Under the pieces are notes generated by a model that was given only the letters and a program-made list of their open reading frames with translations, was not told the origin of the DNA and did no database searches. From Takakia lepidozioides (lineage: Eukaryota > Plantae > Bryophyta): a stretch of DNA of 16,000 bases. This document shows positions 1 to 16,000 of the stretch, in pieces. Location of the stretch: the NCBI GenBank assembly GCA_030704615.1, contig JAKLZA010000080.1:1-16000 (forward strand), in the 5' to 3' direction. Position numbers and translations under genes: made by a program. Positions within the stretch are counted from its first letter, which is position 1. The number at the start of each line of letters is the position of its first letter.

Positions 1-216
1 GCCGTCAAAAGGGATGAAAGGCGGGCTCATTAATGAGTACGGAAAAAGGGAAACGGAACGAACGGCAAGTACAGAAAAGCGGAATTTTTGTCACATGTGT
101 GATCCTAGTGGACTATCCAACAGGGAAAGTCCACTAAAGAAGATAAAATCTAAAATCCAGTCACAGCGGATACAGCCAATAGAAAACCGAGAAAGGATCA
201 AGAAAATGGAGGGAAA

Positions 217-1101
217 TTGAGCGCAAGAGGCGGCGTCGTTCTGAGTAACGGGCGTCTCGACAGGACAGACCATCAATGCTATACCTTGGAAACTATGGAG
301 GAACTAACAGACTATACGCTTGCAATATTACTTACGCAGTGGCATAGACACGAAAGGACAGAGCGGAGCTTTTCTCTTGAGCGATGCTTGCAAGCCCCGC
401 AGGCTTACAAAAAATTACCCATAGCTTTCTGCGGCAACCATACGTTTATGCTTTGTGCACTACAGGCATTCCTATAGTTGTTACAGCCAAAATAGTTCGG
501 TGAGTCTAGAATGAAGAGAGTGAGAGGCATGGAGGAAATCAGGGTGAAGAGCACCACGATTCTGCAGAAACAAACAATTGCTACCCCACAGGCGATACAG
601 TTACTGGAGGAGCTGAGATTGCAAGGATTGCAAAGCCTAGATTGGACACTACACCATAGACAATACATGTTACAATTTTTGCAGAACTTTGAGCCAAGGG
701 CAGGAACAACAACGGTGAAGGGAGTTGAATTGATGATTACTCCCCTATACCTCCAGCAATTGTTTCGATTGCCAGCAGGTCAGGTGCATGTGGAGGAACA
801 CAGGGCAAGACTGCAAATAGGGGACTTATTCCAAGAAGGGAGTTTCTTTAAAACTCAGGGTTATGCTTGTACCAAGGCTGTGTACCCAGGGCTAAAAGAG
901 ATAGGCCAGGTATTGAACGTTCTGATTGCCATGAAACAGAACCAACAGTATTTGAGCAGATCCTTCACGGAGGAAATACTCAAAGGCCTGAAGGGACAAG
1001 AGGTACAATGGCGGACATAATGTACAACGCACTGGTAGAGGAGATGAAAAGATTACAAGGTACTACCGCATAGTCTCCTATAATAGTGTCGGGGGCTGCT
1101 A
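217..1101 (+). pseudogene. Decayed retrotransposon-associated ORF (resembles the 'putative plant transposon protein'/extra-ORF type), 5' part, interrupted by the DNA transposon
   Basis: ORFs 217..477 and 511..1020 are in frame across two TAG codons. A 1-bp frameshift near 1010 leads into ADIMYNALVEEMK. The motif QFLQNF...TVKGVELMITPLYLQQLFRLPAG...GQEVQWADIMY resembles plant LTR-retrotransposon accessory ORFs. Confidence 0.6.
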
Positions 1102-1171
1102 TTTCATGAGCCATGAGCCATGAGCGGCATGAGCCATGAGCAGAGTCGTAAGTGTGGAAAAAAACATGAGC
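1102..1171 (+). repeat. Left imperfect terminal inverted repeat built of CATGAGC units
   Basis: CATGAGC at 1105, 1112, 1119, 1128, 1135 and 1165. It also shares AGTC(G)TAAG with the reverse complement of the right end. Confidence 0.85.
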
Positions 1172-1553
1172 AGCACTATTTTCCGGAAATGAGTGTCCGC
1201 GGGAATAGGGTTTAGGGTGCCACGGTCATAGGGGGAGAAGGACCTCCCGATGAAGGAGGTTCGGCAATGTTATTTAGAATTATATATTGAAAGGCAATGT
1301 TTCGCAAATGGTAGGGTGGTACTGCTCTGTACAATGGGGCCCATTTCAGCCTTACCAGCCATTTGCAAAATTCACCCACACTCCCAATCCCAAACGAAAT
1401 GAGCAATGACGCATTCTCGGAACAATGGACACAGAATAGAATAAAAAGAGGGCACAATGAGGTTTTTATTGATCCACATGAATTGCATTTGAAGCACGTC
1501 TACTGTGCTGATTGTGCCCTCAAATCTTGAGCCCTGTGCCTACTGAATACAAG

Positions 1554-2651
1554 TCACGTTGTCAATGGGACTTCGACTGCTCTCAGAACTAGCTCATGAG
1601 TCCTGGGGCTCCTCCATGTAAAGTCGATTGCAGCCGTTGTACCGCCCCTAGTGATGTTCACCACAATGTCCTGCCCTTCAATCATACCACCATCGAATAT
1701 GGAAATCTTCACGTTTTCGTCGTCCACACCAATGCGAATGTCCCCATACAATGGAGAAGAGGAGCGCACTCCTCGAGGAGAATAGGTCTCTCCGATGGAG
1801 TCCACCCACGTCCAGTGGCAGCAGTTCCACCGCAACAGCATAGCAGTGCGCCTTCTTCTGCATGGGTGACCGTCGTAGCTGGGAAAATCGGAATCGAGGA
1901 TGCGCAGGAGCCACGGACTCCTCAAACCAAGATCGTCACCCCGCTCGAAGGCGTAGTGGCCTACGATATACTCAAAAGCCACCAATGTTTCCACAATCGA
2001 ACCAGTATCTTCTGTGTAATCTGTGTACCAGATAACAATGTCTCCCGATGTGGCCGAATACATTGCATAATCGATGCCTCCAAAGGGGCAGTCGTCCCGG
2101 TTCCGGAAGCACGGCATCCTTGCAAAGGAGGACCTGAGGACGACTTGGATGCCGATGACCTTGCGGACAGCTACGAAGCCCTTAGATTTTGGAAAAGATA
2201 CGAAGCGGAAGAGCAGTCCGGCCTCCAAAATGGAGCATCTGGGTCACACGTACCCACCGACGGAGGTGGAACGTGTTCATCACGCCAGCGGTGGATGAAG
2301 CCATACATCTTTCTCATCAACAAGTTATAGTTTGAGATCTGCCACCGAAGTCCATCCCCCCGGATGGAAATTCGGCGCCGCATTTACATCGAAGAGGGGA
2401 TGGACTTCGTCGTGTCCAGTGGCTATCGGCCCACCTGGCAGTGACTGCCCATAGTTTGCATGGCAGGGTAGGAAACTGAAACGGCTACATTCATGCAGCA
2501 GCCAATCTTCATCGGTCCAGGATCCTGTACGGGGGAAATTTAAATGTGCCCTGGAGTGTGCCCTGGAATGTACCTCACTTCTGTATGACTGTGTTTCATT
2601 GTGTTGAATAACTCTCGGATTTGGCCCACTGTTTACAATTTGATGTCTCAT
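1554..2651 (-). pseudogene. Putative third element gene of unknown function, interrupted by in-frame stops
   Basis: ORFs 2325..2651 and 1554..2228 are in the same frame, separated by TAA/TGA/TGA/TGA codons (compatible with CAA/CGA deamination, or with an unrecognised intron). The C-terminal 224 aa look globular and beta-rich. No family recognised. Confidence 0.4.
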
Positions 2652-2744
2652 TTCTACAATTTGTCTGTCTGGTTGAATAAAGCAGAGTAACCGGTATGTG
2701 AGTCATGTGTCAAGAATATACCAGAGTAACGCCATGTCGGACAT

Positions 2745-3544
2745 TGAAATGCGGCACCGCATTTCCATGTCGGCATCGAAATGCGGCGCCGCATTTCCAA
2801 GTCGGGATCGAAATGCGGCACCGCATTTCCATGTCGGACATCGAAATGCGGCACCGCATTTCCATGTGGGACAAGAAAATGCGGTGCATCATTTCCGTCC
2901 AGGTACACGAAATACCAACACGGGTCTATAAATTGATCAGAAAACGAGGTTGGCATTGCAAATGCGGCGACGCATTTCCAGCTTGGCAATGGAAACTTCT
3001 TTTTGGACAAGGGAATGCGGTGCCGCATTTCCGTCCAACACTTCGAAAAGTGCACCTATTTCCGACCAGCGCGATGGAATGCGTTACCGCATTTCCGAGA
3101 GAGGGTCTGCAAATTGACAAATTGCGATGTCCGTTCTGGAAATGCGGCGCCGCATTTCCATGTCCGTCATCGACTTTTTTTTTACAATGGAATGCGGTGC
3201 CAGTTTTTGCTGATGGGTCTGCAGTTCGAACAACCACCATCCCCAATATGGAAATGCGGCACCGCATTTCCAATCCCGCCATGTCGGCCTCCTTGTTCGA
3301 CCTCCTTGTTCGACCTCTGTAAGCGTGGTGGCATCCATGCAATGAGCGGGAGAGGCCAAAACTGGCGTGTGGACAAAGGAAATTTTGGAAATGCGGCACC
3401 GCATTCCCAATTCAGATTACTTTTTACTATGCCAACATTGAAATGGAAAAATTAGTCCCTCCCCTGTTTTGGAAATGCGGTGCCGCATTTCCAAAAGAGG
3501 TTCTTAGAGTTGCCAAAATTTTGGAAATGCCCTGACCCATTTCT
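2745..3544. repeat. Second, looser array of ~14 copies of the same palindrome
   Basis: Unit starts about 2745, 2777, 2809, 2842, 2875, 2958, 3011, 3075, 3138, 3188, 3250, 3387, 3471, 3523. The first five form a 32-33-bp tandem repeat. Confidence 0.93.
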
Positions 3545-3680
3545 GATTTTGGGAGCGTCCTGGTTTGGGCGATTGTGTGGCTGGAATGCACACTGGAGAG
3601 GGGTCACGAATGTCGGGCAGAATTTTCTTTATATACTCTGGAAGAGAATTTACATTTACAGAGACTTCATTAAAATTCTA

Positions 3681-6600
3681 TTAATCTTGAAAATCATCGG
3701 AATCCTCATCCTGTTCTAGACTGTCCTGCTCCTCCTCCACCCCCTCAGTGCCTCTCTCATCTCCAGCGGACTGCTCGTTGGCCAGGCTTTCGAAAATCCC
3801 ATCTTCCCCTTGCGGAACTGTCCATCTCACCTCCGTTGGGTCGTCTCCTCCCTGTCTGCGTCGCTCTCATCCGCTGAATCACATATGTACTTTCGTACCC
3901 GTCTACCTGTCTGAGCTGCTGCCAACTCTTTCCTTATCCTTCTGTCCTCCCTAGCCCTCTCCAAAATCTGCTCTACTTTACTGGGATTCTCACTTCTTCT
4001 AATCGCTGTATTTGCGAGTTTAGCTGCATAACTAGGAAGGGAGTAGTCCCTCACCGGGCTCGTCATGAAGTCGGCCCTCGCAAAGAACGGGACATTCTTC
4101 CTGGCAGGAAGTGTAGGCCCTACATGTTTCGACCCGGACCCTGCAATCCTGCACATGACAATCATCAACGAGACTAATGAGAACCACAGTCGGGAAATTC
4201 CTTTGACATAAATGACCCAGAAGGCTTTGCAAACTTACAATGTTTGCACTCACTCGTATTCCGGGTTCTCCTCTGCATCAATGTCCACTGTGTCTTCCTC
4301 GGACTCCGACGAATCCGAGGAGACTTCCGCTCTGTCGGGAGCCTTCACATTCCGTTGCAGCCCCTCCAGATGGGATCCCCACACGGATGAATCCTCCTCG
4401 TAGGCAAAGAGGTGCCGGTCGGAAAACCGCCCAGCCCACATTGAGGCACCTGTTACAATGCCATCCACACATTACCACATGGCGCTTCAGATGTTGCGAA
4501 CTACATCCTAACGAGAATTTGCAGAACAGCAGAGATCAAGATTCTGCATACCTGTCCCACAGATGAGGTCCAGCACTGTGCCCTCCACGTCTGTGCATGT
4601 CTCCATAATTGTCTGAATGAAGGCAGGGCTCCGAGTCCGTGAGTACCGCAGGGGTTCCGTTGAAGTGAGGCTATGAGGGAGAAGTTCCTTGGGAACGTTG
4701 TTGAACAGAACGTCGTAATCGAGTGGGTCGCAGTTCGGGTCAACCTTTCCTCCCTCCTTCCGGAAAGCAAAGGTGGAGTTTTCCTTCACAAAGCAGTATG
4801 CATCGAACTGCTTCGTCTGCATACACAGGGGGAAAACGATTAGAAACCGAATGCGGCACCGCATTTGAAAGCACCCAAGCAAATGAATGGACGAGTGCCA
4901 GTGTCGTAATCACCTTCTTCCCTTCCGACCGAAGGCCCAGTGTGTTGATGCACGTCCACTTCTTTTTCAGAATCGGGACGGCGCTCTTGCGGGTCCACTT
5001 CGCAATTCCTGTCTGAGTGTTTTTTCCTCTGCTCGCCAGGACAACCACACAGCCTCTGTCGTCCAACACCATGCGGGCAAGCCCGAATCCTTTCTTCCAA
5101 AAGTCCTCCGAGTACCTGTTCCAAGATGGCAAAGCTTGCAGTCCTTCCACAGGCTCTCCGTCCGGAATATCCAAGATGATCATATCGCAAGACCACTCGG
5201 TGGCATTTCCGCCCCTCCTACAATCCTTGTCTGCACACACCCTCTCAAAGAACGAGACCATATTCTGAAATCCTGGGGTGTCGGAAGGCTCTTCGGCAGT
5301 CGCCTTCTTCAGTGCTCTGCCCTTCAGACCCTCCATGGTCTTCATGTATGCCAACTTGGCTGCCCGTCCATCCAAAGCCGCCAAGAAACTCTCATTTACA
5401 CACTGGACTACAGTTTCGGGAGCCACTTTCGGCCTCTTCATTTCCACCGGCTCGAAAGGGTGCCCCCCTGGGGGGTTGAAGAGTGCCTTCTTTGCCGAGC
5501 CAGTTCTCGTGCCTCTCGTGACAACGGTGGGCACAGGGGAGGCAGCCTGCGTTTGGGGGGTGGGCTGGTTGCAAAGTCTCCATCGGAGTCCTCTTCCTCA
5601 CCCTCTTCCTGAACAGGCTGTTTCTGCTTCTTCGTTTTGGCGGGTGTCACAACAGCTGCTCCTTGCTGGCGAGTCCTCTTCTTCGACCCCTTCTGTTGGG
5701 CCTGCACAGCTGCATCCACCGTCTTTTGTGCCATCTCAGCTGCCTTTCTGGATTCTTCCAGAGCAGCAGATTCCTTTGCCGACTTTGGCCCAGCAGGGAC
5801 ACGTCTTTCCTTTCTCTTCTCTTCTGCCAAGGCGTGCAGATCTTTCTCAGACTCGTCAACAATACCGCCAGACATGTCCAGGTACCACGGGCATCCAACG
5901 AGATGCGCGGGATGCCATTGTTTCTGCATCTCGGGTGTGTAGACACAGCTTGGGCCCGCCACGGTCCAAGCCATGAAGAACGGGGGCTCTTGAGCCAGGG
6001 CCCCTGTCTGAAGGAGCACGTATTTCATATACCTGCAAGGCAGTCAGCATGCGTGAGCAAAACTTGAGACCAACCTACTGGCAGAGTGCCACCGAAAACA
6101 TAAAATGCGAATGCGGTGCCGCATTTCCGAGACAAACCTCGTAACCAGGCTTCGCATACAAGGGCAGCTGTGCTTCACCTGTAAACAATTCGCATTGCAG
6201 CTTTCCCCGCTCCCTCCTGATGTGTAAACTCCACGCTCCTTCTTGCTGTCTGTAGCTCTCTGGCGAAAAGGTTGTCCTTGTACGCACATCTGAAACGTGT
6301 CACGTAGTCTTCCAATGTCTGTGTTCCATCCCATTTGACGTACAAGCCGAACGAATTTGTGTGCATTACGACTTGCTCCTTTGCATTCGACATTACCTGC
6401 CATTCCCAAATGCATTGTCACGTAGCAGTTCAGGGAATTCATGTCAGAAAAGCAAATCTGGGGAAGTACCTTGAATTACCTGGAACCACCAAGTCATGCG
6501 GTTGAGCCACACATCCACTGCAGGGTCGGAAACTTCCAGTGGAAAAGACCACATTGTCCTTATGCTCTCGGATGCATTCCAGATCGACAGCCACCGTGTC

Positions 6601-8802
6601 TGCCATTTCCGATCCAATGTCAGTGGCTGGAAGAGAGTGGCTATTGCTAGGAAGGAAATTCAGTGCATTGAAACCTCACCTTCTCTTTCGCCTCCACACA
6701 TGCCGTTGAGAGGTGATGCAGTTTCTCCAATTGCATGGTCGGCTGCATGGCCCGAGAATAGTGTTTTGCAATCTCGGGGATGAAGTCCTTTCCAAGTGCC
6801 GGATCTGCAATTGCCACCAGCTTCACAAGCTTTGACTTGTATTTGGTTCTGGACTTGACACCGGCTTCCTTCAAGTGCTCAGTCAATGACTGCAACGTTT
6901 TGACCTGCCCCTCACTTTCCATGAAGAAGCGTTTGGCATGGGCCAAATCCAGCTTGATGTTTGACTGCCAACAAAAACATGCAGAAGCGTTACATTCGAT
7001 TCATGTGGAAACATTACTGGAAATTGGGGAAGGATGAGCAGAGGGAAATTGGAGCACGACTTACTTCGTATATCACCTCCACCATTCCATCCATAGTGAG
7101 ACGATACCATGTCCGGTCTGTTTTTGCAACGGCTTTCTGAATGAGCTCCGGCTCCAGCATTTCCGCAAACATCTGCGGATCAGTAAGACCAGTTTTCCTC
7201 ACCCTGTACAGCATATGTGCCATGTGGGTATGCACGTACGCATTCTCAGTGACCCTGCAAGGCACACTCTCCAGTTCAGTACACGGAAGCACGGAATCAA
7301 ACCAGAATGGAAACCGAAATGCGGCACCGCATTTCGAATGTGCTAGGGAGGGTATGAGTATCTTACGAGTTGAGGTCCGCCATGGCATTCTTGAGGAGGG
7401 AGGAGTCTGCCGCCTTCACCTTGAGGATGACACACTCCACCATGTAATGCCAGCCAATGTGCTTGGCATGGTTCTGCTTGATGTACTCCCACCAGGCGAG
7501 AAGTCGGTGATTCCCGTCCCACACAAAGAACATTTTTCCCGACATATGGCCGAAGTCGGGATCACCCTTCAGCGTCGCCTCGAATTCGTGGTTGCGAGTG
7601 TGCCAGTGGGTATCCCACGTTGACAATTCATCGGCAGTGGGTCCACGGGTTTCGCCGTCCTCATTCTCTATGGAAACGTAAAACGCTGCCGATCCCAGAC
7701 GGTACCCTTCTCGAAATGCGAACTTGAGCTTATCCACATCTCCGGGAAGGGCCTGCCTGACGATGGGAAGGGAGACCATGCGACAGAGTGGGATTCGAAG
7801 AGTCCGCTGGAATACCCTGCTGCCCAGAACTCTGCCAATGCTACTGTGTGTCTCCTCCAACATTTTATCCGCTGCACTTTTGAAATCCTCCGGAGACATG
7901 TCTGTAGGTGCAGGTAGTGGCTGAGCAGGTGGAGCATCCTCAACTGGAGCTGCACTCTGGGGCCTGTGTGCGGGCAATTCTGCCACTGCAGAGGCCTCCT
8001 CCGGGCCTGCTAGCTCATCGGTGGTGAGGTCTGCCTGCGAACGTTCAGCGGCAGCACCCTCCTCCGGTACCAAATCGAGATCAACGGTCGATCCCATTGC
8101 CTTCGCTGCAGCAGAGTCGGCCCCAACATCTGCAGGCGGGAAATCCTCCAGGAACTGAGCTTCAGCTCGTGGAAGCGTTTTGCGGGAGATTGTTCGCCCG
8201 TCGCCCTGATTGCCTTCTGCTTCCTCATCCTTGCAGGTGAAGGTGTCTGCTGCAATAGAATCTGTCTTCTACCCTGCTGCTTCATTCGCGTTGGGGGGGG
8301 TGAATCGGCCTGAGCCGGTTCAGAAGCCAGTAGAGGGACGGGCTGCTTCTTCTTCGACTTTGCTGGAGAAGGGCCCGACCCGTGCTGGCGATTCTCCATG
8401 ATCGAAGAACGCGAGTCGATCTCTGAGACTTTGAACTTGCCCTTCGAAGACGCGTCTTTGAATCGCAGAGGGCTAGGCCCGGCAGGAGTACCCGCGCTCG
8501 GGGATCGGGTGGGTGTACGTGCTGCAGCTAGCTCCTCGGACTCTTCCTGCGGCTCTTCGGATTCCTGCGATCCCTCCAGCACGTCCACCTTTCCTGTTAG
8601 GCATGCAAACATGTTCTGCATTCAAGTCTCCTAGCATTCAGTCTAAGAATTACAGAAGCAAAATGGGGGGTTCGGTGCTCGATCAGCTGCGCGCAGCCCG
8701 ATCGCATGGAGCTCTCACTGGTGGCTGGGTTGCCTGAGTGGCCTGCTGCTCGGAGATGGCAATCTCCTCCTGTAGACGCATCTGCTTCCTCCCCTTCGGC
8801 AT
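3681..8802 (-). CDS. Multi-exon (~10 exons, ~1,400 aa) protein: low-complexity N-terminus + ParB/Sulfiredoxin-like domain + central region + beta-class N6A/N4C DNA methyltransferase-like domain + acidic tail; three apparent 1-bp frameshifts
   Basis: Phase-compatible GT-AG exons: 8802-8719 (tentative), ~8600-7367 (acceptor uncertain), 7254-7065, 6964-6680, 6599-6480, 6396-6179, 6032-4914, 4816-4552, 4449-4254, 4148-3681. Motifs: FFVWDGNHRLLAW (DGNHR 7504-7518); CDMIILDIPD (motif IV-like, DIPD 5160-5171); spliced VLDLICGT|GASMWAGRFSDRHLFAYEED (motif I-II, SAM binding). Frame changes at G runs near 8293-8300, 5555-5560 and 3838-3840, and a possible TAG at 8269-8271. Confidence 0.8.
4380..5200 (-). 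other. Beta-class amino-DNA methyltransferase-like domain (N6_N4_Mtase type) split over three exons
   Basis: Catalytic-type motif DMIILDIPD is followed by ARMVLDDRGCVVV (cf. R+LK..G.+++), then RSPAFIQTIMETCTDVEGTVLDLICGTGASMWAG..SDRHLFAYEED (cf. KP..++..++...T..G..VLDPF.GSGTT..A.....R...G.E.D). Motif IV precedes motif I, which is the beta order. Confidence 0.8.
7370..7810 (-). other. ParB/Sulfiredoxin-like N-terminal domain
   Basis: RIPLCRM...VRQ...DVDKLK..F..GY...(insert)...FFVWDGNHRLLAW matches the ParB/Srx layout (IP+..+...R....+..L..S+...G ... ++DGxHR+.A). Confidence 0.72.
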
Positions 8803-9237
8803 TGGCCTACGTCCGAAGTATAATTTCCGGAGCTTGCGACGAGGTCTCCTGTCTGGTGCACGAACTCCCCCCCTCTCAGGTTCGAGCATAAGAAGAACAG
8901 AGAGAGGGAAAAGGGGCAAAGAGTGCAGATGGAAAGGGCGCGAGAGGGGTGACTGAGGAGACACGACAAAAGTAGATGAAACGGCGGTGATGCACCACTT
9001 GGGTTCGAAAGGTTGGACGAAAGTGTCTCCTCGTGGAGTTTGCGTCATTACGAAATTCGAATCGTTGAGGGTACGCCCGCCGTCCGAAAATCAAACATCA
9101 TTATCCAACGGTCAGGCCGCGCCGCCTCATGCCCCTTCAGTCAGATAGAGTGCCGACATGTGCAGCAATTCCGTTGCTCCACGTGTTCACATTTCAAGGC
9201 ATTTCCGTCCCAGCGTCTGATGAGTTGGAGCGAGAAT

Positions 9238-10941
9238 GCGAATGCGGCGCCGCATTTCCGTTAAGTACGATCACTCTGCTACACATCCGTACTTGTTGGA
9301 AGAAAATGCGGCACCGCATTTCCGTTCCACCTTCACATACCTTAGTTGTTGAACGGAAATACGGTGCCGCATTTCCGTCCCACAGCTCCAAGTATGAGAT
9401 TCAGAAGGGAAATGCGGCGCCGCATTTCCGTTCCCACTTCACATACGTTAGTTGATGAATGGAAATGCCGTGCCACATTTCCGTTCGGGAAAGTATAGAG
9501 GTCTCACCTGGACAGAAATGCGGTGTCGCATTTCCGGTCTGGAAAGGTTGAAGGTCTCACATGGATGGAAATGCGGCAACACATTTCCGTAGCACAGCTC
9601 CAGGCCGAATATACAAAACGGAAATGCGGCGCCGCATTTCCGTTCGAGAATGTCGGAAGGTGCGACTCGAACGGAAATGCGGTGCCGCATTTCTGTACCC
9701 GTTGCGCACGATTTTCAGTCAGAATGGAAATGCGGTACCGCATTTCCGTTCTGTAGAGTATTAACGTCTGACGCTGGCGGAAATGCCTTCCCGCATTTTC
9801 GTTCCACAGCTCCATGCCTCACATACAAAACGGAAATGCGGTGCCGCATTTCCGTTTTGGAATGTCGGATGGTGGGACTCCGACGGAAATGCGGTACCGC
9901 ATTTCAATTCCGATGTTTCAGGATATTTCATCAGAACGGAAATGCGGTGCCGCATTTCCCTTTTAAATCTAATACATTCCGTTCTGGAATGTTGGGAGGT
10001 GCGACTCGGATGGAAATGCGCTGCCGCATTTCAGTTCCGATGGTTCACGATTTTCAGTCAGAACGGAAATGCGGTGCCGCATTTCCGTTCTGGCCTGATG
10101 GTAGGTGCGACTCGGATGGAAATACGTTGCCGCATTTCAGTTCCGATGGTTCACGATTTTCAGTCAGAACGGAAATGCGGTGCCGCATTTCCGTTCTGGA
10201 ATGATGGTAGGTGCGACTCGGATGGAAATACGGTGCCGCATTTCAGTTCAGATAGTTCACGATTTTCAGTCAGAACGGAAATGCGGTGCCGCATTTCCGT
10301 TCTGGATAGTGTGAATGTCTCAACCGGTCGGAATTGCGCTGTATGAAGCTGTCGGAATCTTACTCGGCTCCAGGCATCAGATACAAAATGGAAATGCGGC
10401 GCCGCATTTCCTTTATGGAATGTCGAAAAGTGCGACTTTGACGGAAATGCGGTGCCGCATTTCTGTTCCCGTTGTTCATAATTCTCAATCAGAACGGAAA
10501 TGCGGTACCGCATTTCCGTTCCACCTTCACATACCGTGCTTGTTGAATGAAAATGCGGTACCGCATTTCCGTTCTCGAGAGTATGAATGTCTTTTAAGGA
10601 CGGAAATGTGCTGCAGCATTTCTATCCCTCAGCTCCATGCATCAGATACAAAATGGAAATGCGGCGCCGCATTCCCGTTCTGGAATGTCGAAAAGTGCGA
10701 CTCGGACGGAAATGCGGTGCCGCATTTCTGTTCCCGTTGTTCATAAATCTCAATCAGAACGGAAATGCGGTACCGCATTTCCGTTCCACCTTCACATACC
10801 GTGCTTGCTGGATGGAAATGCGTTACCGCATTTCCGTTCTGGAGAGTATAAAGGTTTCCCCCGGACGGAAACTCGGTGCCGCATTTCCGTCGCTCTGTTG
10901 CATGACCAAGATGCAATACGGAAATGCGGCGCCGTATTTCC
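9238..10941. repeat. Array of ~32 palindromes GGAAATGCGG-YR-CCGCATTTCC with a 53-bp period and 31-bp spacers of five recurring types
   Basis: Unit starts: 9302, 9355, 9408 ... 9938 (step 53); 10012 ... 10330 (step 53); 10390 ... 10920 (step 53); plus 9238. It lies between the divergent methyltransferase-like and transposase genes. Confidence 0.95.
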
Positions 10942-11370
10942 GTCCACCAGCAATCGACAGAATCACTCGTGACGGGAAATCTGGAACCTCAATGGGTTGC
11001 ATTGTTCCGAAACAACACAATTGCGGCCAGTCTTGATGAGCACAACTTGGTTGTCTGACCGTTTTAACCAGCAGTCCTGGCACTTGTCAGTGCGAACGTT
11101 CCTGTCTGCACCGAGAATACTGCTGGATCCACCCTCAGGAGAAACTGTCAGGAGATGTTATTTCGTCGCCGAATCGGCCATCATTGTCCTACTCACTGGC
11201 TATGGAATCAAACCTCCCACCTTCATGCATGTAGCTTGAAACAATACTTTCCACTTCAATGTGCGACTTCCAATTGTCGATGGACTCCGCAGATCCACTT
11301 AGATGGTGCCTGTGAGCCTTGGTCTGTCGCTATACTGAACCTCGCACTTGCCAACTCCGTGCGGTGTTCG

Positions 11371-14300
11371 ATGGCTCCGAATTCCTACGCTATAGTTTGC
11401 TGTCCTCCGCAACTTGGGAGAGCCTGGATCCCAAACGAGGGAGGACTTTGCAGAGTGACTGAAACTTACCTTTGTTCCAAATTCAAGCTCAAACCGGGCA
11501 CAGTTTATTTGGAAGAAGAAAGGAAGGATGTTCCTGGACAGGTTGACGAGACCATTGTCGTGCTAGGTAACGACGGAGGTTGCGGAATCGAATGGCACGT
11601 TCCCCCGTCAGACACCATCCTGTACCGAGCTGTGGGAATGCCCATTCCCTTTCCGAATCAGTCGCTGCCCACACCATCCACAAAGGAGTCCGGAAACCGA
11701 GAGGCGGCCACTGCCAACAGAGAGGTATGCAACGATAATCATTCCCGACCTGGACCGTCAAGACCCTCCATAGCTTCTCGTGTGGACGTATTCGACATTT
11801 CCGACGAGGAAGATGATTGCATTGAGGTACCCATGTCCTCCACACGGTCGTTCAAATCCGGCATGGACGTCTCTGTAGGTGCTACGCATGTGCCCTCGAG
11901 CATAACTCCAACCCGGTCCATTGTGCAGCTCCTACGACAACATCACCTCGATGGTTCTCGCTCCGAGCTGGCTGCTCTCGACTATGCCAAATTCCCAGTC
12001 AGAAAGGTAACTTTTCTGCCTCCCGAAGTCGATGGCAATGTCATCTTCGAGTTTCCACCTGTTTCTTCGTCAAAGAAAGCCTCCGGGATGTTAACAGACA
12101 TGGATCGAAAGCATGACGGACACCCCTGGTGTGTGACGAAGACCAGTAGCACGAAAATTGCTGATGGTGTTCGTGTACGATATGTCCTCTGTGCGGGGAA
12201 GCTGAGGTGCCTCAATCCCACCTGCTTCCACTTTCTCTCCAAAGGAGGGCGGAGAAACGAGACGGATTGGACTGGCACAACGCATCATCCATTCATTGTC
12301 TCCAGCCAAGCTCCTGCGGGTTCTTTCAAGTGTGCACATTGCAAAGAACCACCGACGTGCATGTCCATGTGCAGAGCCAAGCAATATTACGTAATCCATT
12401 TGCTCCCGGACTTGACTAGAGCTTGCATACACGTTGGGGTCCACTGCCACCCCTTGGCGAGAGGCAACATGCGTGAGGCTGTGCAGGAAGCACACGACAT
12501 CATAAAAGAGGAGGTGAAATTGAGCCCCGGAGCCAGACCAAAGCAGATTCAGCTGAAGGCAGCCCACAAGATTGCTCTTGGCAAAATCATGTCTGAAGAT
12601 GGTTCCGACCGAGAGCCCTTGACCGAAGACGAGATGCGTGACCTCTTGGAGTCCGTCTCGCACGTTTGTAGTCCGAATGTGCGGAATCACATCGTATCTT
12701 GCAAGCAGGAGTTCGGCAGGGGGTCGGACATGTACTCAATCCTGGAGGTGAAACGAATGACTGGATATGACTACATCCAAGGTAGCAGGTTTCCAGGGCA
12801 AGGCAGCGAATCCGATCGTTGTTACATTTTCAAAATGTCGACGTGTGGGCCTGGGAGTGGAGTCGACTTGGTCACTCGCATGACAACTGGAAACTTGTCG
12901 AATGCTTGGGTGATGTTTGATCACATCAAGCGAATTACAAACCATCAGTGGGTGACTATGGGTGCGCATGTTTATGACTATCACTCCAAGAGGCTCATGA
13001 CGATTGCAATCTGCGAGATGAAAGGGGAGGACACACAGTCCGAGATGCATCTGTGGGAGGGCATAAACGAGCAGATGGCAAGGGCGGGATTGCCAGAGCC
13101 CAATTTCAGGGGATTCATGGCAGACAACGCTCAGGCCAACTGGGCAGCGGTGCGGCGTGTGTACGGTGAGGACCCCAATGTTCCAATGGAGGGGAAAGAG
13201 AGATCCTGTGGATTCCATTGGATGCAGAGTCTATCCCACTACACTACCAAATTTGTTGCTAGCTCATTCCAGGCTGAACACCGTGTCCTTTGTACGGCGT
13301 GGAAGGATGCACCCACATTTGATGACGCGGAGGTTAAGTTTGCTATCATCGAGGCTTGGTGGAACACGTCAGGTGCAGTGGAGACAACCAATCTGGGAGC
13401 ATTGCACAGCTGGTTGGGGTGGTGGCATTTTCGGTATCGACAGTTCGGACAGTACATGCGGGAGGTAGGCTGCTGTCATTTTCGTTCATTTGTCTTTCTG
13501 TTACGGACATTTCGATTGGTCCCTCACCGTTGTTTGTGTCCTTCTAGGAGCGGTGCTTGGATTCCGACACGGACATGCCGAACACGAATATGGCAGAATC
13601 GGTCCACTCCTCCTGGCGAGCGTCTTCTGCCGCACATCTGGTGGACGTAGTGACGGCCACAACGGAGGACATCGACAGAGCAATCATGCAGCAAGCCACG
13701 TACTACAAGTTCCTGAGCGGCAAACAATGGGGCTTTGGGCCGGACAGGGAGGAATTGTTGGTACGAACAGCTTCGAGGTCCAAGAATCCAGTGAAATGGG
13801 CGACAGCATTGCGAGAGAAGATCAAAGGGACGCCTCTGCACCGCAGAGGTGAACACCTAGAGGGGGACGTCCGGACTCGCCCTGTCAGGCGGAGGATTGA
13901 AGAGGAACCCGGGTGCGAAGAGGATTCCTGGAGATCCGACAGGAACATTCGGACAGCACCTCGAGGTCCCGTCATGTTGCCGCACAATGTGTCTTCCAGC
14001 AGTGGAAGCCCAAGAAATTCCAGATCGCCGTCGCCTTCAACCGGGGATTTCGTGCAACAAATTCCCACCGCTCCCTTGCCCCACATTCCGCCCGCTGTTA
14101 TGCAGTATGGCCAAGCCATTGTGGAGACGACTGTGTCTGCCTCACAGTGGAGAATTGCTCGCACAAAGCCGTCGTTTCGAGGAAGGTGTTCCGCAATTCG
14201 TGTGGATACACGGCAACGTTGTTTAGAGATGATAAGGAGGAATCCAGATGGGGCTGTCCCTGCTCCTACTTTTACAGGAAGATTTGTCCATGCAAAGTTT

Positions 14301-14978
14301 GCGGAGGCGACAACCACCCAGTTCTGGTTCTGCAGGCACGACATTATGACTTGCGTGTATGGAAAGCCCAAGTACGGCATACAGACAATGCCAGAGGCTC
14401 CCCCGGTGTGGCCGGTGGAACCAGGCTGCGATCTGAGTCAGGTTGAGGCCGACGCCCTTACCGCCGCAGGATTTCGGATGGTGCAGCGCACTGACGTGCC
14501 CAGACAACCATTTCCGCTTCCACAGCCTCCACCACCGACCCCTGTGAGAGCAAGAACAATGGGACACGACAGCTCTAAGCATCCTACACACCGTTGGGGG
14601 AAACCGAAGAGGCGGCGACCTCCCTCAAAAGTGAACGAGACAAGGATGGGGAATGCACTTCGGATGAACTGTACAATCCAGAGCTCGACAGAAGTGCCCC
14701 CACCAGGATTCGGGCGTGTGTATCAGATGGCCACGGCGGGCTCAGCTGTTCGCAATGAGGTGTACACCATCACCATTTCAGAATTACCCACCTGCAATTG
14801 CACCGACTTCCAGATCATGGCGAACAAGGGGGCATCATACTGCCCTTGCAAGCATTTGTACTACGTGTACCTAAAGAGACTCCGTTGTAATTCCACAACT
14901 CATCACTTCATACATGCACCAGGGTTGAGCCCCCAGGAGGTTCACACTCTTCTGAATATGGATCCAGGGGACCAGTGA
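11371..14978 (+). CDS. Mutator-like DDE transposase with GCM-like N-terminal Zn domain and C-terminal SWIM zinc finger; exons 11371-13464 and 13548-14978 (~1,174 aa; upstream in-frame ATG at 11155 possible)
   Basis: ORFs 11155..13650 and 13557..14978 join through a phase-0 GT-AG intron at 13465-13547 (GAG|GTAGGC...TTCTAG|GAG). MULE-type motifs: WVMFD (D 12919), FMADNAQA (D 13123), CGFHW (CxxH, 13207-13218), TNMAES (E 13596). SWIM CNC..F..CKH at 14793-14855. No stops or frameshifts. Confidence 0.9.
12115..12456 (+). other. GCM-like (WRKY-GCM1 superfamily) zinc-binding DNA-binding domain of the transposase
   Basis: The pattern DGHPW...CAGKLRCLNPTC...CAHC...C...GVHCHP parallels GCM (GWAM...CLGVVVC...C...CPNC...C...GEHDHP). 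Confidence 0.75.
13465..13547 (+). other. Spliceosomal intron (83 bp) in the transposase gene
   Basis: GT...AG ends, T-rich, and it restores the frame between the CxxH region and the catalytic E. Confidence 0.88.
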
Positions 14979-15223
14979 GCTTGGCTTGCGGTCCACATAC
15001 AATGGTACGCCCATCGGATAGTAGAACTGTACTGCTGCCAGTACCTCAGACTCTGGCCACACAAAGGTCCGACATATGTCTTGCCTACCAGTAACCTGTT
15101 TTGATCGAACTAAGATATTACTATATCGTTCACTTGTTTCCACGTGCATGTATTTTTGTATGTTGGAGGGTTCATGTTTTTCTGCTTTCCGAAAACTTGC
15201 TCTCCTCATTCGACCTCCGACAA

Positions 15224-15341
15224 GGAAATGCGGCGCCGAATTTCCAAGTATCGTCGTAGGTACCCCCAGAGGCGGCCTTCGCCAACACCAAACCGCTCCG
15301 AAATTTCGCACGTGCGAACCCTAATGCGGCACCCTATTTCC
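15224..15341. repeat. Two solo degenerate palindrome copies downstream of the transposase
   Basis: GGAAATGCGGCGCCGAATTTCC at 15224-15245 and AATGCGGCACCCTATTTCC at 15323-15341. Confidence 0.8.
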
Positions 15342-15720
15342 CAGTTCAGTTGCAAACCTTTCCCGCCGAATACCCGAAGAAGACAGAATTGTGAAGTACT
15401 GCAGACTGTATTGGTGCAGACTCCATTGGTTCAATCGCGGCAAAAGGGTCAGCTTCATTCCAATGTTAAGGCATGTAAAACCGCGGAATACTCTATACAG
15501 GCCAGTATGCGACGTCCTTTTGCAGTGGTATACTGGATTTCCCGTTGCACGGTCACTTATTTCCATGAGCGGATCTATAAAACCATGAGCGGACTTGTTA
15601 CTGACGACATATCTTCGCCGCATTACATGATCTGGAACGTCCAAAAACGGCAAGGTCAAATAAAAAACTATTATTTTAATACTTGTTTAATCTGCCGCAT
15701 TTCCAAATTTGGAGGAGTCC

Positions 15721-15812
15721 GCTCATGAAATCCGCGTATCTTAGACTTCGGCTCACCGCTCATGCGGCTCATGCGGCTCATGGCTCATGGCTCATGGTTT
15801 CTGCTCATGAAA
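15721..15812 (-). repeat. Right imperfect terminal inverted repeat built of GCTCATG units
   Basis: GCTCATG at 15721, 15758, 15767, 15776, 15783, 15790 and 15803. The reverse complement begins TTTCATGAGC like the left end. Extra forward-oriented CATGAGCGGA copies lie at 15564 and 15584. Confidence 0.85.
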
Positions 15813-15918
15813 TAGTAAACCTCCTTATACGGGATCTGTAGGGTACCCTTAATTTTAGCACAGACTGAGACCTACAGGAGCCTTAGGGGTGACAGCAGCG
15901 CACTGTAGAGGGGGGTTA
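15813..15918 (+). pseudogene. 3' continuation of the interrupted flanking ORF
   Basis: Reads (I)VNLLIRDL*GTLNFSTD*DLQEP*G*QQRTVEGGY. All stops are TAG/TGA, consistent with CAG/CGA deamination as in the left flank. Confidence 0.5.
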
Positions 15919-16000
15919 CACAGCCCGTCACAGTCGTCACAGTCATCACAGCCAACACAGCCAACACAGGCCGTCACAGTCGTCACAGCCGACACAGCCA
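15919..16000 (+). repeat. 9-bp minisatellite (CACAGTCGT/CACAGCCAA), ~9 copies, running off the window end
   Basis: cacagcccgt cacagtcgt cacagtcat cacagccaa cacagccaa cacaggccgt cacagtcgt cacagccga cacagcca. Confidence 0.85.

Follow-up and report, generated by a model that had tools for sequence, protein, structure and literature searches.

DNA transposons of algae can carry accessory genes whose products combine a ParB-like domain with a domain of DNA-modifying type. In the brown alga Ectocarpus, the accessory protein of the Sola element Sola1-1_Ec32 is a fusion of a ParB-like and an N4/N6-methyltransferase domain, is encoded on the strand opposite the transposase and has been suggested both to bind the element that carries it and to modify it (PMC12477816). 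Palindromes are the targets of ParB proteins, and the ParB accessory genes of red-algal EnSpm/Plavaka elements have arrays of inverted repeats next to them; PAG3 from a Plavaka element of Bostrychia, for example, has a ParB-homologous N-terminal domain and adjacent tandem inverted-repeat arrays and was likewise proposed to bind its own element, and Plavaka accessory genes move between transposon superfamilies (10.1101/2025.02.11.637652). Self-binding ParB accessory genes next to inverted-repeat arrays have thus already been proposed for algal transposons, and the locus described here is, as far as the covered parts of these accounts allow the comparison, a land-plant variant. It is a probable Mutator-like element (MULE) in a stretch of 16,000 nucleotides from the bryophyte Takakia lepidozioides (GCA_030704615.1, contig JAKLZA010000080.1, positions 1 to 16,000), here called the window. 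The element contains about 50 copies of one palindromic word, which form two arrays and occur singly in three introns of the accessory gene. These palindromes are a real feature and are probably functional, and to judge from sequence their binder is most likely the ParB-fold accessory protein itself.

The window gene fits the algal type by description, being a DNA-transposon gene with inverted-repeat arrays whose product joins a ParB-like domain to one of DNA-modifying type, and it shares with Sola1-1_Ec32 the orientation opposite to the transposase and the proposed self-binding. The two proteins were compared by description only, and the algal element is a Sola transposon of a brown alga, whereas the present one is a probable land-plant MULE with a degenerate methylase motif IV and defined sites; the string 'palindrom' does not occur in the main text of the Ectocarpus study (PMC12477816). 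EnSpm/Plavaka is likewise a transposase superfamily different from MULE, and the C-terminal domain of PAG3 is a 2OG oxygenase, the methylase being found in PAG2, whereas it is methylase-like here; the covered parts of the PAG3 account give no intronic solo copies, motif rule or phasing (10.1101/2025.02.11.637652). In the Arabidopsis VANC/VANDAL system, as far as the source was covered, family-specific motifs lie in tandem repeats, introns and intergenic DNA and are absent from the exon probes tested (PMC5735166). The preliminary description of the window had drawn a parallel to this system, which holds as an analogy, since both are Mutator-like elements (the present one probably) with an accessory gene and a family-specific motif distributed in this way, but does not extend to the protein: VANC has DUF1985/DUF287 domains and 8-9-bp motifs, whereas a ParB fold and 16-22-bp palindromes are found here, and Pfam detected no VANC domain on the scanned accessory exons. 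Anti-silencing is demonstrated for VANC and only inferred for the present element. A modelled ParB N-domain fold further connects the accessory protein to the bacterial ParB-parS, Noc-NBS and KorB-OB systems, whose sites are palindromes of about 16 bp in multiple copies; the present system differs from them in lacking a ParA partner, in residing on a eukaryotic transposon and in its unrelated site sequence. A land-plant description, the CG-N4-CG rule set out below, phasing and intron confinement were not found in the literature searched, which comprised main texts and few subscription journals, and the algal supplements may describe repeat sequences; further related literature was covered in part (PMC4738411; 10.1101/2021.02.12.428880).

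The accessory gene lies on the minus strand (3846-8889), has nine predicted introns and would encode about 1300 amino acids. A motif scan of the window places exact 16-bp AATGCGGNNCCGCATT cores at 4850-4865, 6110-6125 and 7318-7333, of which the third is part of a 22-bp palindrome (7315-7336). As the preliminary description had stated, they lie in introns 4817-4913 (amino acid ~1112, phase 0), 6033-6178 (amino acid 738, phase 2) and 7255-7366 (amino acid 467, phase 2), all of which have GT..AG ends on the minus strand and keep the reading frame, and their spacings of 1260 and 1208 bp agree with the interval of 1.2-1.3 kb given there. The exons are indeed free of copies above chance: the best exonic matches in this gene (4562 and 7229) have four mismatches and are at chance level, 400 Markov shuffles of the gene yielding best matches with 0, 1, 2, 3, 4 and 5 mismatches in 0, 2, 7, 73, 269 and 49 cases, respectively. 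Introns make up 957 of the 5044 bp (19%), and the probability that three of three sites fall wholly within them is 0.004. Because the motif is free of stop codons in every frame, stops would not by themselves force it out of exons. A copy is present in three of the nine predicted introns and absent from the other six as well as from the transposase intron 13465-13547. The transposase gene holds no palindrome above chance level; a three-mismatch look-alike in its exon at 13795 is at chance level (82 of the 400 shuffles reach three mismatches or fewer) and was excluded from the phasing and chance counts.

The remaining copies lie outside the accessory gene. Array A (2748-3541) comprises 13 copies plus one with four mismatches at spacings of 32-137 bp, and array B, with a 53-bp period (9241-10938), fills the gap between the divergent accessory (minus strand) and transposase (plus strand) genes and stops some 130 bp short of the transposase frame. 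Further solo copies reported near 2367, 15224 and 15323 were recovered as degenerate versions, one at 2369-2384 (one mismatch) in the open frame upstream of the open reading frame (ORF) 1554-2243, and two 3' of the transposase (15227-15338), at 15227 (one mismatch) and 15323 (two mismatches); the copy at 15227 has a flank in common with array A units. The intronic solos and the array units, by comparison, have only the 16-22 bp core in common and no extended flank. A copying of array units together with their flanks into the introns was considered and is unsupported, the solos being without array flank. In one sequencing run (X10), contig 4 (838 bases) matches 4556-4865 exactly and continues in unrelated sequence from the edge of the palindrome; on the sequence, this break at 4865 is possibly a rearrangement or an insertion at the palindrome.

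Support for the gene model comes from probable transcripts and from relatives. The other predicted introns are 8589/8594-8718 (uncertain, the acceptor being probably 8589), 6965-7064, 6600-6679, 6397-6479, 4450-4551 and 4141-4253 (uncertain). In a probable RNA run, one contig jumps over 6397-6479 and 6600-6679, both of which have GT-AG ends, and the element family is therefore probably transcribed and spliced; two runs were treated as RNA by guess, the label being on record for neither. No junction across the three palindrome-bearing introns is bridged in these two runs, so that the splicing assumed in the preliminary description is seen at two other introns of the gene and not at the three concerned. 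Apparent junctions 6129>7316 have 20-letter sides and were rejected as repeat artefacts, and comparison with the RNA-run contig turned an earlier 53-bp prediction, 6627-6679, into 6600-6679. Relatives were the best 80 of 282 matching stretches from one metagenome scan, which fall into 42 clusters and are mostly AT-rich and decayed. At locus L001, a spliced aligner run without supplied intron positions recovers introns at amino acids 467 (phase 2), 530, 665, 738 (phase 2), ~1112 and 1199. The positions at amino acids 467, 738 and 1112 are recovered in 34, 18 and 8 of the 42 clusters, a set with many truncated or decayed members, and all three recur in relatives at 31-49% identity. At the amino acid 467 boundary, 9 of 14 homologous ORFs end within one residue and three run on into sequence resembling the next exon. 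The window gene contains 1-bp frameshifts at 8176 and 5554 that are absent from other samples; relative to these, the window copy has single-base deletions at 8176, 5554, 3845 and 9010, which are either assembly errors or mutations private to this copy.

The exact motif of the window occurs in none of the 80 relative loci, which have cognate motifs instead. Palindromes of 20 bp with a CGGCGCCG core (C-to-T decay allowed) were found 36 times, compared with 0 in 15 Markov controls and with 0-5 matches for each of the other 15 cores in the same scan. Other clades have the centres CCGG, GATC or CAAG and different arms, and all fit the scheme arm-CG-N4-CG-arm. When spacers of 0-10 were scanned irrespective of the arms, spacer 4 gave 24 matches in 14 clusters near the gene and 3 outside its vicinity, and the ten other spacers gave 0-3. 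In all, a palindrome site is present in 34 of the 42 clusters (22 and 12 from two sets of scans, one of the 12 with a single weak match). Upstream sites lie mostly 0.2-2 kb from the ParB exon, none lies within transposase matches, and the arms track the clades of the ParB-domain tree. The only invariant part, CG-N4-CG, is simple enough for a conserved host protein, and it could be imagined that a host transcription factor or paired-CG chromatin reader binds the sites and is exploited by the element. Arms that differ among co-resident clades and follow the element tree fit a diverging element-encoded binder instead, which makes a host factor the least probable of the explanations considered.

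Intron confinement extends to the relatives as well. An exon-versus-intron scan, suggested in the preliminary description, found 30 of 30 intragenic copies to be intronic (13 clusters), with introns accounting for 37% of the span; the intron boundaries were checked by hand for five clusters and are uncertain for L055 and L015. The individual introns behave differently. The orthologue of intron 6033-6178 has a cognate site in 7 of 18 aligned clusters, mostly of one clade, and also in L076 and L015, but orthologues of introns 7255-7366 and 4817-4913 have a palindrome in none of 34 and none of 8 clusters, respectively. Relatives typically have one site-bearing intron, at amino acid 594, 665, 738 or 1003. 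Intronic placement recurs among relatives; the choice of intron and even spacing do not, and the idea of an even tiling every 1.2-1.3 kb is rejected. The proposal that sites are maintained wherever coding constraint allows is unsupported in view of the six empty introns and these orthologue counts. The intronic sites of the window are likely independent gains, because the window stands on a long separate branch. In three relatives, an array of four to six palindromes with a 51-bp period has expanded inside the intron at amino acid ~1003 (L018:12473-12747, L023:9309-9531 and L064:12511-12732), an intron that is absent from the window gene. An unrelated 64-bp tandem repeat, probably an insertion of another element, flanks and interrupts the accessory gene of L013 (87-343 and 2620-2996).

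Several features point to protein binding. The copies of array A are spaced in phase with a 10.5-bp period (mean cosine 0.80, p ~1.5e-4; p 0.004 for nine collapsed classes), and the best period in relatives among 8-14 bp tested is 10.5-10.6 bp (n 45-77, p 0.0003-0.003). By slot, CG is intact in 57 of 68 outer arms, 40 of 68 flanking and 6 of 34 central positions of array B. In organism D, the eight changes listed for intron 7255-7366 all spare the palindrome (4 of 37 changes are unlisted), a pattern that backs conservation of the palindrome weakly. Geometry, intron confinement, phasing and retention of the outer CG are the reasons why a function of the palindromes is considered well supported at the sequence level. 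A neutral alternative would have slippage or conversion spread the satellite units, of which only those in introns survive, or would have the cores act as folds of the pre-mRNA. The arrays are tandem, intron placement alone needs just purging from exons, and the cores are able to fold as hairpins; yet the solos lack array flanks, the geometry persists across clades with unalignable introns, and phasing belongs to double-stranded DNA. The three palindrome introns give no consistent folding signal (z-scores of -2.1, +0.7 and -0.8), and there was no Rfam match. Relics or hairpins are accordingly very improbable, and the earlier preference for function over satellite slippage is upheld by the sharing of the core only, the geometry across clades, the exclusively intronic copies of relatives and the helical phasing.

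The accessory protein contains a ParB/Srx-fold domain (7369-7899, minus strand) with conserved VR, DGNHR and M-x-x-x-N motifs, of which VR, G-N-H-R and the terminal N presumably correspond to ParB boxes. In the structural model (AlphaFold pLDDT 90) the domain has the ParB N-domain fold: it superposes on KorB with a Z score of 8.2 and a root-mean-square deviation of 2.4 over 89 aligned residues, and the top Foldseek matches are Srx, Noc, PadC and ParB, none of them at E<=0.001. This first conserved domain is matched by 486 cluster representatives at E<=0.001. The middle helical region, a helix-turn-helix candidate, has a low-confidence fold prediction and weak matches only. Residues 160-670 of the homologue P0080, covering the ParB and helical parts, map to DUF3723 (PF12520) clusters with a language-model score of 0.97, which as a lead suggests that DUF3723 is a ParB-like protein; there was no hidden Markov model (HMM) match to DUF3723. 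Searches of Pfam, PHROGs and PDB sequences returned nothing above cut-off, a homologue search with the methylase exons gave no match, and a pattern scan of prokaryotic genomes and viral contigs revealed no relatives. Named homologues come only from Selaginella; S. moellendorffii has at least 10 annotated ParB/methylase-like genes (P0005, P0156-P0164), all hypothetical or uncharacterised.

The C-terminal part (4350-5200, minus strand), split by introns 4817-4913 and 4450-4551, resembles a beta-class N4/N6 methyltransferase in predicted fold class and in the motif order IV ... X-I. For a Selaginella homologue, the C-terminal domain was assigned to N6_N4_Mtase clusters (score 0.96), and the match to Pfam PF01555 is weak (E ~0.05, below cut-off). 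Motif I reads DLICGTG in the window and motif IV is a degenerate DIPD; all aligned rows have D-x-P-x, none has DPPY or SPPY, and the aromatic residue at the fourth position is lost in all but one (DVPF). Catalysis is doubtful because motif IV lacks the canonical PP-aromatic in every row, and the domain is, from its sequence, probably dead or altered. This bears on the possibility that the palindromes are substrates of an active element-encoded methyltransferase, whose N4-methylcytosine or N6-methyladenine marks on the paired CGs would license the element. The fold, the retained motif I and the Asp and second Pro of motif IV speak for such an enzyme, as does the proposal that the Ectocarpus fusion modifies its own element (PMC12477816, covered in part). 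Against this, the degenerate motif IV and phased arrays, which suggest stable occupancy and not a catalytic target, render a methylation substrate quite improbable.

Another element-encoded candidate is the transposase (11068-14978, plus strand, intron 13465-13547), which has D..D..CxxH..E residues and a C-terminal SWIM-like finger as read from sequence, a motif set that we take to be the MULE family signature; the SWIM match (E 0.063) is below the Pfam cut-off and there is no MULE match in Pfam. It might bind the palindromes through an N-terminal Cys/His-rich domain and use them as internal enhancers of transposition or transcription. N-terminal domains of MULE transposases are WRKY-GCM1-like, and the window half-site ATGCGG resembles the GCM site. 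The Arabidopsis AtMu1 transposase activates cognate copies, as far as that report was covered (10.64898/2026.08.24.746577), and the end of array B lies close to the transposase frame. The same report places the transposase peaks at the terminal inverted repeats, and the termini of the present element bear a different motif, ATGAGC. ATGCGG arms are moreover absent from most relatives, the sites hug the accessory gene, and Pfam and PDB sequence searches gave no GCM match. Binding by the transposase is rather unlikely, but less so than the other rivals.

With somewhat more confidence than doubt, we favour a mechanism in which the ParB-fold accessory protein, as a dimer, binds the palindromes in double-stranded DNA. 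Each monomer would read one arm with its CG and skip the central four bases, and the phased arrays would place dimers on the same face of the helix. A cooperative complex could then nucleate at the divergent promoter and also 3' of the accessory gene, and the intronic solos would carry it into the gene body while the protein code stays untouched. The methylase-like domain, probably dead or altered, may read the DNA or shield it. The result would probably be a VANC-like self-recognition through which the element stays expressed in the face of host silencing by 5-methylcytosine (5mC); the main alternative outcome would be autoregulation of the two divergent genes. Arms that co-evolve with the protein would let each family recognise its own copies only. 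Several points weigh against binding by the accessory protein as described. Array B also abuts the transposase gene, and the accessory gene and transposase travel together, so that co-variation cannot name the binder. Eight of the 42 clusters have no site at the thresholds used (three of the eight have less than 800 bp upstream), and the contrast between outer and central CG is small in decayed relatives (58/218 versus 19/110). The aligner is prone to label unalignable DNA as intron, the motif lists and thresholds behind the site counts and the intron confinement came from the same loci, and neither array copies nor related clusters count as independent. Finally, in a contig from run X10, whose RNA label is guessed, intron 4817-4913 is partly retained.

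That transposon accessory proteins of ParB type bind their own element has so far only been proposed, from algal domain content and adjacent repeats. The present locus and its relatives offer a precise site code, with fixed CG-N4-CG, clade-specific arms, 10.5-bp phasing and intronic solos, and natural pairs of cognate and non-cognate sites for binding assays. If the proposed mechanism is true, plants would have a second VANC-like system for self-recognition, assembled independently out of bacterial-type parts, and a DNA clamp of cytidine triphosphate (CTP) type might operate in a eukaryotic nucleus. A wider and unlikely version would be a eukaryotic parS system, in which a nucleotide-gated ParB clamp of transposons from non-seed plants loads at phased CG-N4-CG palindromes, reads CG methylation and spreads from arrays and intronic relays over the element, with the pseudo-methylase shielding it from 5mC silencing and with DUF3723 of Starships as the fungal counterpart. 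DUF3723 is a conserved accessory gene of these fungal mobile elements in the covered parts of the source (10.1101/2021.12.13.472469), and the likeness, which rests on language-model features of P0080 with no HMM match, is a lead only; it could offer a first way into the function of Starship DUF3723.

The element as a whole extends approximately from 1099 to 15815 (~14.7 kb), as judged from its inverted terminal blocks. The left block (1099-1175, plus strand) consists of ATGAGC repeats, and the right block lies on the minus strand (15721-15815); both open with the same 13 bases and contain 7-9-bp repeats, and the terminal motif differs from the palindrome. No target-site duplication of 8-11 bp was found around these predicted, approximate ends. 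The family is present at high copy number in organism A, and a divergent transposase as in the window was found at 12 of the relative loci. A possible third gene (1554-2520, minus strand) lies between the left end and array A and consists of the 229-amino-acid ORF 1554-2243 and upstream frames; it has no match in Pfam or among the 80 relative loci. The left flank contains an ORF of 174 amino acids without family match (496-1020, plus strand), and the right flank (15918-16000) is a 9-bp microsatellite.

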